Below are positions 8,980-17,200 of a stretch of DNA of 64,000 nt, in pieces. The DNA is taken from assembly GCF_016903815.1 (NCBI RefSeq), contig NZ_CP069973.1, one strand, 5' to 3'. Position numbers and translations under genes: made by a program. This DNA is from Escherichia coli (GTDB taxonomy: Bacteria > Pseudomonadota > Gammaproteobacteria > Enterobacterales > Enterobacteriaceae). Numbering within the stretch: the stretch's first letter is position 1; the number at the start of each line of letters is the position of its first letter. A model generated the notes under the pieces. That model was not told the DNA's origin. It saw only the letters and a list, made by a program, of their open reading frames with translations, and ran no database searches.

Positions 8980-9798
8980 TTAAATCAGGTGGCTATAAAT
9001 GAACCGGGCAATGCTGTCGGTGGTGTTATCACCAATCACAATGTTGGCGCGCGCTTTTACCGCATCATCGGCGTTGCCCATCGCCACGCCTGTACCAGCG
9101 GCCTCCAGCATACTGATATCATTAAAGTTATCGCCGAAGGCCACGACGTTTTCCATCGACCAGCCTTGCGCCTCAACCCATTTCGTCAAACGTTTACCTT
9201 TGCTGTTGCCGCCGCGTGCAATATCAACCTGATCCTGCCAGGACCATTCACACTCAAGTCCCAGTTCATGTTCGACATGCTTACCAAAATGCTGCAATTG
9301 CGGCAGGTCATCGTGCGTCAGGGCGAACTTCCATACGGCGTTAACTTGTTGCGCCGTTTCAGCCAGAGAAGCGACTTGTGTGAAAGTCGGACGCTGTTCC
9401 GGCGGCAGGGTTTGCGCCCAGTTAGACGTGCGAATGACATGCCCGGTCGGGTGCTCATAGACCATCGCATCATCCACATACATCAGACCGTGAATGTGGT
9501 GTTCATTCAGCATCTCAATGAGTTGCAGGGCTTTATTAACGGGCATTGGGTCCGCTTCCAGCACTGTTTTTGCATGATAATCATACAAATAGGTGCCATT
9601 ACAGCAAATAGCAGGTGTATCCAGCGCCAGCGCCTGATAAAAAGGATGAATAGCGACGTGATGGCGACCTGTGACGATGATTAATTGATAGCCTGCTTCG
9701 CAAGCGCGGGCTAGGGCTTCTATCGATGATGGAAGCAAGGTCTTTTTCGGGGTCAATAAGGTGCCGTCTAAGTCGAGAGCAATCACGCGTGTGGTCAT
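8980..9798 (-). CDS. ybhA: HAD-family (Cof-like) phosphatase, pyridoxal phosphate phosphatase
   Basis: ORF track 306 aa; internal ATG giving 272 aa MTTRVIALDLDGTLL (HAD DxDGT motif) matches recalled YbhA. Confidence 0.9.
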   Translation of the reverse strand: MTTRVIALDLDGTLLTPKKTLLPSSIEALARACEAGYQLIIVTGRHHVAIHPFYQALALDTPAICCNGTYLYDYHAKTVLEADPMPVNKALQLIEMLNEHHIHGLMYVDDAMVYEHPTGHVIRTSNWAQTLPPEQRPTFTQVASLAETAQQVNAVWKFALTHDDLPQLQHFGKHVEHELGLECEWSWQDQVDIARGGNSKGKRLTKWVEAQGWSMENVVAFGDNFNDISMLEAAGTGVAMGNADDAVKARANIVIGDNTTDSIARFIYSHLI

Positions 9799-9916
9799 GG
9801 CGTATTCCAGATTAAGGTTAAGAATTTTCGTCTGCGCGAATGGTACACCGATACCACTATCGGACAAAATTCTGCGTTTTAATTCAGCATTCACCGCCAA
9901 AAGCGACTAATTTTAG

Positions 9917-10988: not shown

Positions 10989-11942
10989 TTAACCTATCTC
11001 CTGTAACGCATGTCTCTGGCGTTCGACGATATTGGTCCACAAATTGTCTTTATCGTCAGTCCACAAATTAATCAGCAAGGCAAAAAAGCGTTCAGCTGCC
11101 GGAGAAAGCACGGCATCTTTGCGGCGAATAATCCCCAATGTCCGACGTATAACCGGTTCCACCAGCGGGATACCAATAATCGAAGAGTAGGGCGCATGAG
11201 GCATTGCCAGGCCTGGAAGCGCCGAAATCCCTAGTCCTGCCTCCACCAGTCCTAATGACGTCGAAAGATGACGCACTTCGTAAAACCAGTCCAGCTTCCA
11301 GGGCTTGTCGGCTAGCTGTTGTTCTATCAACAGTCGGTTGCCGCTGGAGGAGCGTACGCCAATCATTTTGTAACCCACTAACTCCTGCCATTCTACAAGC
11401 TGCTTTTTGGCCAATGGATGGTCACGCCGACAGGCCAGCACGAACGGCTCGTTGACCAGGGGGGTAAAATCAATGGATGAATTTGTGACGTTGTTCATGT
11501 TTATGCCAAAGTCTGATTCGTTACACAGCACCGATTCCATGCAATTATTCGTGCCTTGTTCCAGAATCCGCACTTTAATATTGGGATACAGCTCATTAAA
11601 TTTACCGATTGCCAGCGGTAAAAAATAAAATACTGCGGTCGGAATACACGCTAATGTCACCATACCACGATGATAAGCATTCATATCACGAATATTAAAA
11701 AGCGTTTCATCGAATTTCTTTATTAATTCCCGCGCCTCCGGGAGCAACCTTTTTCCTGCTTTTGTTAACGTAACCTTGCGAGTTGTACGCTCAAATAGTT
11801 GAATATGTAAATCTTCCTCCATCTTTTTTATTCTTCGCGTTAATGCAGGTTGCGTAATATTGAGTAATTTAGCGGCATTGTTAAATGAACTGGACTCTGC
11901 CAGTATGACAAATGCCTTCATACTTGATAATTCATGCTTCAT
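10989..11942 (-). CDS. ybhD: LysR-family transcriptional regulator
   Basis: ORF track 338 aa; start set to ATG at 11942 (MKHELSSMKAF, GGAG 8 nt upstream) for 317 aa; divergent from ybhH. Confidence 0.9.
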   Translation of the reverse strand: MKHELSSMKAFVILAESSSFNNAAKLLNITQPALTRRIKKMEEDLHIQLFERTTRKVTLTKAGKRLLPEARELIKKFDETLFNIRDMNAYHRGMVTLACIPTAVFYFLPLAIGKFNELYPNIKVRILEQGTNNCMESVLCNESDFGINMNNVTNSSIDFTPLVNEPFVLACRRDHPLAKKQLVEWQELVGYKMIGVRSSSGNRLLIEQQLADKPWKLDWFYEVRHLSTSLGLVEAGLGISALPGLAMPHAPYSSIIGIPLVEPVIRRTLGIIRRKDAVLSPAAERFFALLINLWTDDKDNLWTNIVERQRHALQEIG

Positions 11943-12125
11943 TATTACTCCGGAAAATGGAAGCGTCGATTTTGGGTGGCTGGCCGTTAAAAATTTTAAC
12001 TGCATTTAGCCAACTTAAATTAATGAAAAAATGTTATTAATCGTTGAGCTAAAGTCATTAGAGATGCTTTGCCCTTAATGTAACCATATCGCAATAAGTT
12101 ATGTTTTTAAATTGAGGGCATTATT

Positions 12126-13178
12126 ATGAAAAAAATACCCTGCGTGATGATGCGAGGTGGAACCTCGAGGGGCGCGTTCCTGTTAGCGGAACATTTACCC
12201 GAAGATCAAACGCAGCGCGATAAAATATTGATGGCAATTATGGGTTCCGGTAACGATCTGGAAATTGACGGTATTGGCGGCGGTAATCCGCTGACCAGTA
12301 AAGTCGCCATTATTAGCCGCTCCAGCGATCCGCGTGCAGATGTCGATTATCTGTTTGCTCAAGTTATCGTCCATGAGCAACGTGTCGATACCACGCCTAA
12401 CTGCGGCAATATGCTGTCTGGCGTTGGGGCATTCGCCATTGAAAATGGTTTGATTGCAGCGACTTCGCCAGTTACCCGCGTACGTATCCGCAACGTCAAT
12501 ACGGGTACGTTCATCGAAGCTGATGTGCAAACGCCAAATGGTGTTGTCGAGTACGAGGGTAGCGCCAGAATTGACGGCGTACCGGGTACTGCCGCACCGG
12601 TTGCGCTCACTTTCCTGAATGCCGCCGGAACCAAAACCGGAAAAGTCTTCCCGACGGATAATCAGATTGATTATTTTGACGATGTCCCGGTGACCTGTAT
12701 CGATATGGCGATGCCAGTTGTCATTATTCCTGCTGAATATCTGGGAAAAACAGGCTATGAATTACCGGCGGAGCTGGATGCCGACAAAGCATTATTAGCC
12801 CGCATTGAATCTATCCGTCTACAAGCGGGTAAAGCAATGGGCTTAGGCGATGTCAGTAATATGGTTATCCCTAAACCTGTGCTTATTTCTCCAGCGCAGA
12901 AAGGCGGAGCAATTAATGTGCGTTATTTTATGCCGCATTCTTGCCATCGCGCGCTGGCGATAACCGGTGCTATTGCCATTTCCAGTAGTTGTGCATTGGA
13001 AGGCACCGTCACCCGACAAATCGTCCCTTCTGTAGGATACGGCAATATCAATATTGAACACCCCAGTGGTGCGCTCGACGTTCATTTAAGTAATGAAGGT
13101 CAGGATGCCACGACGTTACGCGCATCTGTTATTCGGACAACCAGAAAAATATTTTCCGGTGAAGTTTTTCTTCCCTGA
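12126..13178 (+). CDS. ybhH: PrpF/AcnD-accessory family putative isomerase
   Basis: 350 aa ORF matching recalled YbhH. Confidence 0.9.
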   Translation: MKKIPCVMMRGGTSRGAFLLAEHLPEDQTQRDKILMAIMGSGNDLEIDGIGGGNPLTSKVAIISRSSDPRADVDYLFAQVIVHEQRVDTTPNCGNMLSGVGAFAIENGLIAATSPVTRVRIRNVNTGTFIEADVQTPNGVVEYEGSARIDGVPGTAAPVALTFLNAAGTKTGKVFPTDNQIDYFDDVPVTCIDMAMPVVIIPAEYLGKTGYELPAELDADKALLARIESIRLQAGKAMGLGDVSNMVIPKPVLISPAQKGGAINVRYFMPHSCHRALAITGAIAISSSCALEGTVTRQIVPSVGYGNINIEHPSGALDVHLSNEGQDATTLRASVIRTTRKIFSGEVFLP

Positions 13179-13253
13179 AAAAATTCGTTGTCAGGATAAG
13201 GACAATCAATAAAGGACTTCTGTATGAGTCATACAGAAAGAACAGGATTTTAA

Positions 13254-14687
13254 ATGAATAAAAAATCGTTATGGAAGCTAATTCTGATATTAGCGATCCC
13301 ATGTATTATTGGCTTTATGCCAGCTCCGGCAGGATTAAGCGAACTGGCGTGGGTGCTTTTTGGTATTTACCTGGCGGCCATTGTGGGGCTGGTTATCAAG
13401 CCTTTCCCGGAACCTGTCGTACTGTTAATTGCCGTTGCTGCCTCCATGGTGGTGGTCGGTAACTTATCCGACGGTGCGTTTAAAACCACCGCCGTATTAA
13501 GCGGTTACTCTTCAGGTACCACCTGGCTGGTGTTCTCGGCGTTTACCTTAAGCGCCGCATTTGTGACCACCGGCTTAGGTAAACGTATTGCCTATTTGCT
13601 GATTGGTAAAATTGGTAGCACTACCCTGGGTCTGGGTTACGTTACGGTATTTCTCGATCTGGTACTGGCTCCGGCAACACCGTCTAACACCGCGCGTGCG
13701 GGCGGCATTGTGTTACCGATCATCAACAGCGTGGCGGTGGCTTTGGGGTCCGAACCGGAAAAAAGCCCGCGTCGTGTCGGACATTACCTGATGATGTCCA
13801 TTTACATGGTCACCAAAACCACCAGCTATATGTTCTTTACCGCAATGGCGGGGAACATTCTGGCGCTGAAAATGATCAACGATATTCTGCACCTGCAAAT
13901 TAGCTGGGGTGGATGGGCGCTGGCCGCCGGATTGCCGGGTATCATTATGCTGCTGGTCACCCCGCTGGTGATTTACACCATGTATCCGCCAGAAATTAAG
14001 AAGGTGGATAACAAAACCATCGCCAAAGCGGGCCTTGCCGAACTGGGACCGATGAAAATCCGCGAAAAAATGCTGCTCGGTGTCTTCGTGCTGGCGCTGC
14101 TGGGCTGGATTTTCAGTAAGTCACTGGGGGTTGATGAATCCACCGTGGCAATCGTTGTTATGGCGACCATGCTGCTGCTGGGTATCGTTACCTGGGAAGA
14201 CGTGGTTAAAAATAAAGGCGGCTGGAATACCTTAATCTGGTACGGCGGTATTATCGGCTTAAGCTCCTTATTATCGAAAGTTAAATTCTTCGAATGGTTA
14301 GCTGAAGTCTTTAAAAATAACCTGGCATTTGATGGTCACGGTAACGTTGCTTTCTTCGTTATTATTTTCCTCAGCATTATCGTGCGTTATTTCTTCGCTT
14401 CCGGTAGTGCCTATATCGTTGCCATGTTACCGGTATTTGCCATGCTGGCGAACGTCTCCGGCGCACCGTTAATGTTAACCGCGCTGGCACTGTTGTTCTC
14501 CAACTCCTATGGCGGCATGGTTACTCACTATGGCGGCGCGGCAGGTCCGGTCATCTTTGGCGTGGGTTATAACGATATTAAATCCTGGTGGTTGGTCGGT
14601 GCGGTACTGACGATATTAACCTTCCTGGTGCATATCACCCTTGGCGTGTGGTGGTGGAATATGCTGATCGGCTGGAACATGCTGTAA
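13254..14687 (+). CDS. ybhI: DASS-family putative di/tricarboxylate transporter
   Basis: 477 aa polytopic membrane ORF. Confidence 0.9.
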   Translation: MNKKSLWKLILILAIPCIIGFMPAPAGLSELAWVLFGIYLAAIVGLVIKPFPEPVVLLIAVAASMVVVGNLSDGAFKTTAVLSGYSSGTTWLVFSAFTLSAAFVTTGLGKRIAYLLIGKIGSTTLGLGYVTVFLDLVLAPATPSNTARAGGIVLPIINSVAVALGSEPEKSPRRVGHYLMMSIYMVTKTTSYMFFTAMAGNILALKMINDILHLQISWGGWALAAGLPGIIMLLVTPLVIYTMYPPEIKKVDNKTIAKAGLAELGPMKIREKMLLGVFVLALLGWIFSKSLGVDESTVAIVVMATMLLLGIVTWEDVVKNKGGWNTLIWYGGIIGLSSLLSKVKFFEWLAEVFKNNLAFDGHGNVAFFVIIFLSIIVRYFFASGSAYIVAMLPVFAMLANVSGAPLMLTALALLFSNSYGGMVTHYGGAAGPVIFGVGYNDIKSWWLVGAVLTILTFLVHITLGVWWWNMLIGWNML

Positions 14688-14689
14688 AT

Positions 14690-14814
14690 ATACTCGTCAT
14701 ACTTCAAGTTGCATGTGCTGCGTCTGCGTTCGCTCACCCCAGTCACTTACTTATGTAAGCTCCTGGGGATTCACTCGATTGTCGCCTTCCTGCAACTCGA
14801 ATTATTTAGAGTAT
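14690..14814. repeat. ERIC (enterobacterial repetitive intergenic consensus / IRU) element
   Basis: Contains CGCTCACCCCAGTCACTTACTT (reverse complement of the ERIC2 primer sequence) and ATGTAAGCTCCTGGGGATTCAC (ERIC1R sequence) plus outer imperfect inverted arms; about 125 bp between ybhI and ybhJ. Confidence 0.75.
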
Positions 14815-14869
14815 ATCCATTTATTATCTTTCTGCGCACTTCTCGGTGCGCAGATATCTGGAGCATTTG

Positions 14870-17131
14870 ATGATCAAGTTATCTGAAAAAGGCGTGTTTC
14901 TCGCCAGTAATAACGAAATAATTGCCGAAGAACATTTCACCGGCGAAATTAAAAAAGAAGAAGCAAAAAAAGGCACTATTGCCTGGTCTATTCTCTCTTC
15001 TCATAATACGTCCGGAAATATGGATAAACTTAAAATTAAGTTTGATTCATTAGCCTCTCACGATATTACCTTTGTTGGTATTGTACAGACCGCTAAAGCG
15101 TCCGGTATGGAACGTTTCCCGCTGCCGTATGTGCTGACCAACTGCCATAACTCACTTTGCGCCGTCGGCGGCACCATTAACGGTGATGACCATGTTTTTG
15201 GTTTATCGGCGGCTCAGCGTTATGGCGGTATTTTTGTGCCTCCGCATATTGCGGTCATCCATCAATATATGCGCGAGATGATGGCAGGCGGCGGCAAAAT
15301 GATCCTCGGGTCAGACAGCCACACCCGTTACGGTGCATTAGGGACAATGGCAGTCGGTGAGGGCGGCGGCGAGTTGGTAAAACAATTGCTTAATGACACC
15401 TGGGATATCGACTATCCGGGAGTTGTTGCGGTGCATCTGACCGGAAAACCAGCGCCGTATGTGGGGCCACAGGATGTGGCGCTGGCTATCATCGGTGCCG
15501 TGTTCAAAAACGGCTACGTCAAAAACAAAGTGATGGAATTCGTAGGTCCCGGTGTTGCTGCGCTCTCTACCGATTTCCGTAACAGCGTTGACGTTATGAC
15601 CACGGAAACGACCTGTTTAAGTTCTGTCTGGCAAACCGATGAAGAAGTCCATAACTGGCTGGCGCTGCACGGTCGCGGCCAGGATTACTGCCAGCTTAAC
15701 CCTCAACCGATGGCGTACTACGATGGCTGCATCAGCGTTGATTTAAGCGCCATCAAACCAATGATTGCGCTGCCGTTCCACCCGAGCAACGTGTATGAAA
15801 TCGACATGCTGAACCAGAACCTGACCGACATTCTGCGTGAGATTGAAATTGAGTCCGAACGCGTGGCGCACGGTAAAGCCAAACTCTCGCTGCTGGATAA
15901 AGTGGAAAATGGTCGCCTGAAAGTGCAGCAGGGGATTATCGCAGGCTGTTCTGGCGGTAACTACGAAAACGTCATCGCGGCGGCGAATGCACTGCGCGGT
16001 CAATCCTGTGGCAATGACACCTTCTCGTTAGCGGTTTACCCGTCATCACAGCCGGTGTTTATGGATTTAGCCAAAAAAGGCGTGGTAGCAGATTTGATTG
16101 GCGCAGGCGCAATCATCAGAACCGCGTTCTGCGGCCCATGCTTTGGCGCGGGCGATACGCCAATCAACAACGGTTTGAGCATTCGCCACACCACGCGTAA
16201 CTTCCCGAACCGCGAAGGCTCTAAGCCAGCCAATGGGCAGATGTCAGCGGTGGCGTTGATGGACGCTCGTTCTATCGCTGCGACTGCGGCAAACGGTGGC
16301 TATTTAACCTCTGCCAGCGAACTTGATTGCTGGGACAACGTGCCGGAGTACGCCTTCGATGTAACGCCGTATAAAAACCGTGTTTATCAGGGCTTTGTGA
16401 AAGGGGCGACCCAGCAACCGCTGATTTACGGACCGAACATTAAAGACTGGCCGGAATTGGGTGCGCTGACTGACAATATCGTCCTCAAAGTGTGCTCGAA
16501 GATCCTCGACGAAGTCACCACCACCGACGAACTGATTCCTTCCGGTGAAACCTCTTCTTATCGTTCAAATCCGATTGGTCTGGCGGAGTTTACCCTGTCA
16601 CGCCGCGATCCAGGTTATGTTGGCAGAAGTAAAGCGACTGCTGAGCTGGAAAATCAGCGTCTGGCGGGGAATGTCAGCGAGCTGACAGAGGTGTTTGCGC
16701 GCATTAAGCAGATTACTGGTCAGGAGCATATTGATCCGCTGCAAACTGAAATTGGCAGCATGGTCTATGCGGTGAAACCAGGCGATGGTTCTGCGCGTGA
16801 GCAGGCGGCGAGCTGCCAGCGTGTGATTGGCGGTCTGGCGAATATTGCCGAGGAGTACGCGACTAAACGCTACCGTTCTAACGTCATCAACTGGGGGATG
16901 TTACCGCTGCAGATGGCGGAAGCGCCAACGTTTGAAGTGGGGGATTACATTTACATCCCTGGCATTAAAGCAGCGCTGGATAATCCGGGTACGACGTTTA
17001 AAGGTTATGTGATCCATGAAGATGCGCCGGTAACGGAAATTACGCTTTACATGGAAAGCCTGACGGCCGAAGAGCGCGAGATTATCAAGGCGGGTAGTTT
17101 GATTAACTTCAATAAAAACCGTCAGATGTAA
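14870..17131 (+). CDS. ybhJ: aconitase-family putative hydratase
   Basis: ORF track begins at an upstream non-ATG start (14846); ATG at 14870 ([10 protein letters not shown]) has GGAG 7 nt upstream and gives the 753 aa recalled for K-12. Confidence 0.9.
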
Positions 17132-17135
17132 AAAA

Positions 17136-17200
17136 AGGCGCTATGAAATATAGCGCCCAGTTTCATTAACCCGATGGTTCAGACTATCGGGTTTTCTTTT
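17136..17200. terminator. paired hairpins between convergent ybhJ and ybhC
   Basis: GGCGCTAT-GAAA-TATAGCGCC hairpin then CCCGATGG...CTATCGGG hairpin followed by T-rich tract. Confidence 0.5.

Follow-up and report, generated by a model that had tools for sequence, protein, structure and literature searches.

What do the genes ybhD, ybhH, ybhI and ybhJ do for Escherichia coli? They occupy positions 10989 to 17131 of the 64,000-nucleotide stretch of E. coli DNA analysed here (contig NZ_CP069973.1 of assembly GCF_016903815.1; hereafter the window), and an earlier account made from the letters alone, the sequence-only reading, had described them as an uncharacterised, LysR-regulated module for the catabolism of a tricarboxylate. 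We propose that ybhD-ybhHIJ is an inducible uptake and funnelling module for an aconitate isomer, most likely plant-derived trans-aconitate, which would pass through cis-aconitate to citrate or isocitrate; we regard the proposal as about evenly balanced between right and wrong. Grasses, cereals and sugar cane are rich in trans-aconitate, an inhibitor of aconitase. The proposal draws on the gene families, catalytic residues, operon-like anatomy and homologue neighbourhoods observed here, together with the published control of ybhH by YbhD.

In the proposed pathway YbhI, an exchanger-type transporter of the DASS family, would import the aconitate isomer, probably against succinate or another C4-dicarboxylate. 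YbhH, a PrpF-family allylic isomerase with a Lys/Cys pair, would turn the imported isomer into cis-aconitate, and YbhJ, an oxygen-sensitive [4Fe-4S] aconitase of the gut-anaerobe type, would convert this to citrate or isocitrate, which would then enter citrate lyase or isocitrate dehydrogenase. YbhD would keep the operon repressed until an effector appears, and the setting is probably anaerobic. Judged from its comparative context, the module points to plain aconitate, isomerised before it would be hydrated, rather than to a dehydration of the methylcitrate type.

The identities that the sequence-only reading gave to the four genes are borne out by open reading frames, Pfam and NCBIfam profiles and RefSeq annotation. 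The LysR-type regulator gene ybhD (10989..11942, minus strand) encodes 317 residues (Pfam LysR_substrate, E 2.5e-46; HTH_1, E 2.8e-21); its mechanical open reading frame reaches 12005, and it is the annotated start that gives this length. On the plus strand follow ybhH (12126..13178), for a PrpF-family allylic isomerase of 350 residues (Pfam PrpF, E 1.6e-167; PDB entry 6OTV) that we predict to be an aconitate isomerase; ybhI (13254..14687), for a DASS-family carboxylate transporter of the exchanger type with 477 residues (Pfam Na_sulph_symp, E 1e-194; TIGR00785, 553 bits); and ybhJ (14870..17131), for an aconitase-family [4Fe-4S] hydratase of 753 residues (Pfam Aconitase, E 8.7e-88; NCBIfam PRK11413 'hydratase', 1539 bits), predicted to be an anaerobe-type aconitase. 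The divergent layout of a LysR gene against ybhH-ybhI-ybhJ is as had been described, and the bounds given for the module coincide exactly with the ybhD and ybhJ stops. An identical RefSeq stretch of E. coli carries the same annotation and strands, with pgl and ybhC as flanks. The locus is found at a query coverage of at least 80% in 5315 of 5426 complete E. coli genomes and is intact in about 98%, and the 6.3-kb stretch is 100% identical in several human isolates. These are real, conserved genes, far beyond chance. They are also known and annotated already, and so not new in themselves; the label 'uncharacterised' holds, as the literature searched yields no established substrate and assigns none to the products of ybhD, ybhH, ybhI or ybhJ.

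Several known systems share parts of this design. In the proven trans-aconitate assimilation system of Bacillus velezensis FZB42, tarR is divergent from tarA, for a PrpF-family aconitate isomerase, and tarB, for an importer (PMC11495376). Both loci place a divergent LysR gene beside an operon that opens with a PrpF-superfamily isomerase and continues with an importer, and the route would in both cases run from import through cis-aconitate into central metabolism. In a species table of that study the PrpF homologues of Shigella, E. fergusonii and Edwardsiella, which are YbhH orthologues about 40% identical to TarA, are entered as tarA-type, untested there (PMC11495376). The differences are that YbhI belongs to the DASS family (Na_sulph_symp) whereas TarB belongs to the major facilitator superfamily, a further exchange of transporter, for an ATP-binding cassette (ABC) system, being seen in Rhizobium; that E. 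coli has the additional aconitase-family gene ybhJ; and that TarR activates, whereas ybhH is de-repressed when YbhD is lost. The L-tartrate system of E. coli, ttdR divergent from ttdAB-ttdT, is likewise built from a LysR gene in divergent orientation, a gene for an Fe-S hydro-lyase and one for a DASS antiporter, and YbhI is 33-34% identical to the transporters of this and of the citCDEFXG-citT system. There, however, the hydro-lyase is a tartrate dehydratase of the fumarase type, where the ybh locus has a PrpF-family isomerase and an aconitase-type enzyme, and YbhD resembles TtdR in the DNA-binding domain only (26% identity over 117 residues). In the operons of anaerobic Bacillota for citrate synthase, aconitase and isocitrate dehydrogenase, YbhJ orthologues hold the aconitase slot (Lachnospiraceae, Hungatella, Megasphaera), whereas in the Enterobacterales ybhJ has instead become linked with isomerase, transporter and LysR regulator genes.

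The sequence-only reading, which our analysis supports overall, had compared the locus with the AcnD/PrpF pair of the 2-methylcitrate pathway, known from Shewanella oneidensis (PMC5690661). The analogy stands at the level of the superfamilies, since an aconitase-superfamily enzyme and a PrpF-superfamily isomerase are paired in both, and fails for the two equivalog models: YbhJ scores 63.3 bits against the AcnD model TIGR02333 (cut-off 1419.85) and YbhH 186 bits against the PrpF model TIGR02334 (cut-off 440.55). The order of the reactions is probably reversed as well, with the isomerase acting before the hydratase. With these scores, and with pgl and ybhC as neighbours in place of prpB and prpC, we rejected membership in the AcnD/PrpF methylcitrate family.

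What is new here is the assignment of the locus as a variant of tar-type aconitate assimilation in which the transporter is a DASS exchanger and an anaerobe-type aconitase has been recruited, together with the reading of YbhJ as a real aconitase and of YbhH-clade proteins as likely to be mis-annotated as oxalomesaconate tautomerases. If the assignment is correct, four conserved y-genes of the best-studied bacterium gain a function, and YbhJ, which has been dismissed as inactive, is explained. Gut E. coli would gain a nutrient common in grasses and cereals, with a bearing on nutrition in herbivores and cereal eaters, on tricarballylate formation in the rumen and on the engineering of strains for aconitate production.

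Catalytic residues and relatives of YbhH and YbhJ

A structure of YbhH itself has been deposited as PDB entry 6OTV under the name 'putative isomerase' only. Its Lys59 and Cys93 align with the catalytic Lys66 and Cys100 of LigU, the positions mutated in PDB entries 6P3H and 6P3K. The YbhH of the window differs from 6OTV by one residue near the C-terminus, where it has F in place of Y (GEV[F/Y]LP).

The YbhH clade spans 58-100% identity, and the neighbourhoods of its members bear directly on the substrate. The nearest relatives outside the Enterobacteriaceae, 58-59% identical, lie on plasmids of Rhizobium and Sinorhizobium in modules that consist only of a LysR gene, the isomerase gene and an ABC importer (NMT1-type binding protein, ATPase and permease), and on a Providencia plasmid the LysR-isomerase pair stands alone. 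The regulators of these pairs are orthologues of YbhD over their full length (47% identity in Rhizobium, 54% in Providencia). Since the Rhizobium modules contain a regulator, an isomerase and an importer and no further enzyme, the product of the isomerase must already be a central metabolite, just as in the tarR-tarA-tarB system of Bacillus velezensis. More distant homologues also stand beside tricarboxylate genes. In Gemmobacter a homologue of 49% identity lies between genes for a tripartite tricarboxylate transporter and tcuAB, which encode the enzymes that take tricarballylate to cis-aconitate, and a Bacillus thuringiensis plasmid carries a PrpF gene, 41% identical, paired with a DMT transporter gene in the tbrAB arrangement of the aconitate isomerase operon. 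The cluster on the Gemmobacter fulvus plasmid (L100, 532-10379) comprises a two-component system, tctC/tctA, a PrpF-family '4-oxalomesaconate tautomerase', a GntR regulator and tcuAB; it looks like a combined island for the utilisation of tricarballylate and aconitate, whose isomerase is probably mis-named.

That name belongs to a separate group. The GalD proteins of Sodalis and of a Klebsiella plasmid, 45-50% identical to YbhH, are encoded within galB-galC-galD clusters, and in Novosphingobium the homologue gene overlaps an amidohydrolase gene of the LigJ type. In a neighbour-joining tree YbhH and its close relatives form a clade apart from that of GalD and LigU, and the TbrA-like protein branches basally to the two. 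Oxalomesaconate differs from trans-aconitate by a single additional carbonyl, and this likeness makes it plausible that a LigU-like active site would act on aconitate. The name '4-oxalomesaconate tautomerase' on YbhH-clade proteins of organisms that have no gallate pathway is a probable over-annotation. YbhH resembles LigU in overall identity and in the Lys/Cys pair, and differs in its clade and in the absence of hydratase and aldolase neighbours; we therefore rejected its membership in the GalD/LigU family, the tree placing it elsewhere and the pathway neighbours, GalB/LigJ hydratase and GalC/LigK 4-carboxy-4-hydroxy-2-oxoadipate (CHA) aldolase, not being found beside it.

The three Fe-S cysteines of YbhJ, C360, C421 and C424, align with C358, C421 and C424 of pig mitochondrial aconitase, and YbhJ keeps counterparts of H147, D165-S166-H167, R447, R452, S642 and R644; all of these are invariant among eight members of the YbhJ family, down to 40% identity. 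A TTD-x11-R motif (D553, R565) has the same spacing as D568 and R580 of aconitase. No tool, working from sequence only, aligned the N-terminal part of the YbhJ swivel domain, in which this motif lies, to mitochondrial aconitase, so that we treat these two as presumed equivalents.

The result that weighs most for YbhJ is comparative. A scan for YbhJ relatives over one genome per GTDB species returned at least 598 stretches, of which the best 80 loci outside the Enterobacterales were examined; neighbouring open reading frames were clustered de novo and then annotated with Pfam and NCBIfam. The 80 relatives are full length and 65-72% identical, and their hosts are anaerobes of the gut and rumen (Lachnospiraceae, Enterocloster, Hungatella, Blautia, Butyrivibrio, Collinsella, Megasphaera, Acidaminococcus, Ellagibacter and others). 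A citrate synthase gene, an isocitrate-dehydrogenase-like gene or citDEF lies within 4.5 kb in 19 of the 40 loci that are neither enterobacterial nor from Collinsella. Five of these loci have operons of YbhJ, citrate synthase and an isocitrate-dehydrogenase-like gene, and three, in Megasphaera, a divergent version of the same set; two have a LysR gene divergent from YbhJ and isocitrate dehydrogenase, and another has a LysR gene divergent from YbhJ-citD-citE-citF-citG-citC, with citDEF adjoining YbhJ in a further two. Because orthologues of 65-72% identity adjoin genes of citrate synthase, isocitrate dehydrogenase or citrate lyase, YbhJ is probably a true aconitase, and the simplest reading of these comparisons is a genuine aconitase of an anaerobe-type family. 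Its activity would be missed in aerobic E. coli extracts if the operon is repressed, the enzyme oxygen-labile, or both. The analysis brings to light an aconitase family, widespread among gut anaerobes, that is unstudied.

At the E. coli locus itself genes for citrate or isocitrate enzymes are not adjacent, the neighbours being pgl and ybhC. In Collinsella the YbhJ orthologue lies amid heat-shock genes (dnaK, a DnaJ-domain gene, a MerR-family regulator gene and clpB). Acidaminococcus fermentans is a user of trans-aconitate; its YbhJ orthologue lies amid housekeeping genes, and an isomerase gene was not found nearby. Among distant relatives (35-47% identity, from a library clustered at 50%) the contexts were uninformative, two genes standing alone and a third lying on a short contig. 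On a metagenome contig (L007, 3832-10241) a small Gly_transporter-family gene stands between two YbhJ-like paralogues (54% and 45%), and a LysR gene is alongside.

Transport, repression and linkage of the module

Over its full length YbhI is 33% identical to CitT, the citrate:succinate antiporter, and 34% to TtdT, the tartrate:succinate antiporter. Its best relatives of known structure are the chloroplast proteins DiT1 and DiT2.1, followed by 6WTW and 6WU1, which were deposited only as 'DASS family sodium-coupled anion symporter'. DiT proteins function as exchangers. YbhI thus groups with the exchangers CitT and TtdT, and antiport is what its sequence predicts.

Deletion of ybhD leads to strong up-regulation of ybhH, and a YbhD binding site has been mapped by ChIP-exo (chromatin immunoprecipitation with exonuclease digestion) in a study that also mentions possible control by Nac and leaves the function open (Rodionova et al. 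2022, PMC9068703). In the supplement of that study we found no fold-change for ybhJ. A genomic SELEX (systematic evolution of ligands by exponential enrichment) screen lists ybhH as a predicted CRP target, and in one co-culture transcript study an 18-fold rise of ybhJ accompanied a rise of fumB, the gene for the anaerobic fumarase.

The LysR, PrpF, DASS and YbhJ genes occur together in Escherichia, Citrobacter, Edwardsiella and Klebsiella at differing chromosomal sites: the four-gene module moves as a unit. The linkage of ybhJ to ybhH and ybhI is confined, among the loci examined, to the Enterobacterales, as no YbhH or YbhI homologue lies near the YbhJ orthologue in any of the best 80 loci outside that order. 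In Klebsiella aerogenes (L004/L005; 4865-12286 and 14016-22286) a gene for an additional CitMHS-family transporter stands between the DASS gene and ybhJ, and the module lies directly beside the citrate fermentation locus citS-oadGAB-citAB/citC, with a second LysR gene adjacent. In Edwardsiella tarda (L002/L003, 8405-10000) gene calling leaves the interval between ybhH and ybhJ empty, and all that is recovered of ybhI is a C-terminal fragment (9133-9915, 88% identity), so that ybhI is probably a pseudogene there; the copy in E. hoshinae is intact. In the window, the 5' half of ybhD (11500-11999) has a G+C fraction of 0.386 against about 0.51 in its surroundings, which is consistent with a horizontally acquired module.

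A metagenome contig (L009, 199-10202) offers a parallel. Here a LysR gene is divergent from an isocitrate-dehydrogenase-like gene, a PrpF gene and a gene for an aconitase 40% identical to YbhJ, and two further aconitase-family genes lie divergently, one of them encoding a protein 59% identical to YbhJ. The set may be an aconitate-to-2-oxoglutarate module with three aconitase paralogues. The contig is unrelated, and the same three activities have been joined on it independently.

A more specific form of the proposal treats the locus as a hybrid, in which a proteobacterial YbhD-YbhH pair, a succinate-exchanging DASS transporter and an aconitase of gut-anaerobe lineage would make up an anaerobic pathway for trans-aconitate. 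YbhJ would then be a third true aconitase, active only when induced and at low oxygen, and would feed citrate lyase. This fuller version is tentative, and we think it rather less likely to be right than wrong.

Weighing the proposal against its rivals

A number of observations weigh against an aconitate module. YbhH passes the NCBIfam OMA_tautomer model NF033377 with 515.5 bits (cut-off 440), and at 46% identity it is somewhat closer to LigU than to the TbrA-like isomerase (41-42%); the value of about 40% that its Shigella and Edwardsiella orthologues reach with TarA is likewise below that for LigU. Throughout the YbhJ family Asp100 of aconitase is replaced by cysteine (Cys92), and the pairing of D553 and R565 with D568 and R580 is a matter of motif spacing. 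We know of no report that E. coli grows on trans-aconitate. E. coli does not appear in the species table of the tar study (PMC11495376), and the sole phenotype reported for a ybhD mutant is a weak one in growth related to L-malate (PMC9068703); speculatively, this would fit a C4-dicarboxylate as the exchange partner. YbhJ has been termed a 'catalytically inactive paralog' of aconitase (Krisko et al. 2014, PMC4054840), in a passage that cites Blank et al. 2002. Finally, everything said here on which substrate is used, which way and against what partner it is transported, the anaerobic setting and the activities of YbhH, YbhI and YbhJ is inferred.

One alternative is a different substrate. YbhH might shift the double bond of another unsaturated carboxylate, of the itaconate or citraconate type, 2-methylaconitate, homoaconitate or another substituted tricarboxylate, and YbhJ might then hydrate the product. 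Two known pathways do pair a PrpF-family isomerase with an aconitase-family enzyme, the 3-methylitaconate isomerase and dimethylmalate dehydratase of nicotinate fermentation and the AcnD/PrpF couple; 3-methylitaconate isomerase (PDB 3G7K, E 4e-67) is a better match to YbhH than PrpF is (E 1e-47), and the YbhJ orthologue of Edwardsiella hoshinae bears the name '2,3-dimethylmalate dehydratase large subunit' in one UniRef entry. We nevertheless consider such an acid unlikely, as the close orthologues of YbhJ sit in operons of citrate synthase, isocitrate dehydrogenase or citrate lyase, the minimal modules of LysR gene, isomerase and importer require a product that is a central metabolite, the scores fall far short of both the AcnD and PrpF equivalog models, and E. 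coli already has PrpD for methylcitrate. Less likely still is a true 4-oxalomesaconate isomerase or tautomerase, acting on ring-cleavage products of gallate or protocatechuate that YbhI imports, with YbhJ in place of the usual hydratase. The equivalog score, the identity to LigU with its catalytic Lys and Cys kept, and the closeness of oxalomesaconate to trans-aconitate would all be expected of such an enzyme, yet the locus lacks genes for a GalB/LigJ hydratase, a CHA aldolase and a ring-cleavage dioxygenase, the genuine GalD proteins of Sodalis and the Klebsiella plasmid form a separate clade within galB-galC-galD clusters, and the Rhizobium members of the YbhH clade are accompanied by no downstream enzyme at all. 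We give it a very small probability.

The reactions of the proposed aconitate pathway could also run in reverse, YbhJ taking citrate to cis-aconitate, YbhH converting this to trans-aconitate and YbhI exporting it, as in the tbrAB production operon of Bacillus thuringiensis. Aconitate isomerases work in both directions, with the trans isomer favoured, and TarA is interchangeable with TbrA (PMC11495376); a dedicated aconitase would increase the supply of precursor, and the tbrA-like gene is likewise paired with a transporter gene. Against production, the Rhizobium YbhD-YbhH pair is coupled to a binding-protein-dependent ABC system, a kind of system that imports, the YbhI relatives CitT and TtdT are annotated for uptake, and both the listing of ybhH as a predicted CRP target and repression by YbhD fit a catabolic operon, so that export is the reading to which we assign the least weight of all. 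A decaying remnant, or a non-catalytic or stress role in which YbhJ as an inactive aconitase paralogue affects redox or iron balance, is improbable too, if not quite to that degree. It would accommodate the description of YbhJ as inactive, the sensitivity to H2O2 and low NADPH of a ybhJ deletion (Krisko et al. 2014, PMC4054840), the presence of ybhJ among the oxidative-stress hits of a biofilm screen and the apparent truncation of ybhI in Edwardsiella tarda. It sits poorly with three Fe-S ligands and nearly all catalytic residues invariant across the YbhJ family, with a locus intact in nearly all E. coli genomes and with a module that stays together in several genera, at differing positions on the chromosome.

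Intergenic elements and transcript anatomy

The spacer between ybhD and ybhH is 183 bp long and contains, at 12019..12041, a perfect inverted repeat, ATTAAT-N11-ATTAAT, with the T-N11-A pattern. Escherichia, Citrobacter, two Edwardsiella species and Klebsiella all retain T-N11-A, and the first half-site does not vary among them; from its sequence, this dyad is the obvious candidate for the YbhD operator. Scans of the ybhD-ybhH region with the FNR, CRP, ArcA and Nac consensus sequences gave nothing convincing, and a scan for sigma-70 promoters showed no enrichment over shuffled sequence.

An AGGA Shine-Dalgarno sequence precedes the ATG of ybhI. The 75-bp spacer between ybhH and ybhI holds a 10-bp hairpin (13217..13239, plus strand) that is followed by no T-run and is not a terminator. 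The gap between ybhI and ybhJ is larger, 182 bp, and is taken up mostly by a repeat at 14689..14815 that folds as a long hairpin (z-score -6.2). Exact matches at 14731-14752 and 14753-14774 to both standard primer sequences for enterobacterial repetitive intergenic consensus (ERIC) elements mark it as an ERIC repeat, or intergenic repeat unit (IRU). E. coli and E. albertii carry the element, whereas Citrobacter, Edwardsiella and Klebsiella lack it and have a corresponding spacer of 55-75 bp; the repeat is complete and is a lineage-specific insertion, in Escherichia only.

No terminator-like site is predicted on the plus strand from ybhH to the end of ybhJ. A single ybhH-ybhI-ybhJ transcript fits the sequence, because there is no internal terminator and the one large gap is the ERIC insertion, and the anatomy supports a reading of the three genes as one transcription unit. 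Just 5' of the ybhJ Shine-Dalgarno sequence lies a GC-rich 10-bp hairpin (CTGCGCAC...GTGCGCAG, 14833-14856) that overlaps an alternative GTG start at 14846 and has no T-run after it; it could have an effect on ybhJ translation or mRNA stability. Beyond the ybhJ stop, a terminator region at 17137..17193 is shared with the convergent gene ybhC; it comprises a bidirectional hairpin at 17137-17157 and, at 17168-17193, an intrinsic terminator of the plus strand with a T-run after it.

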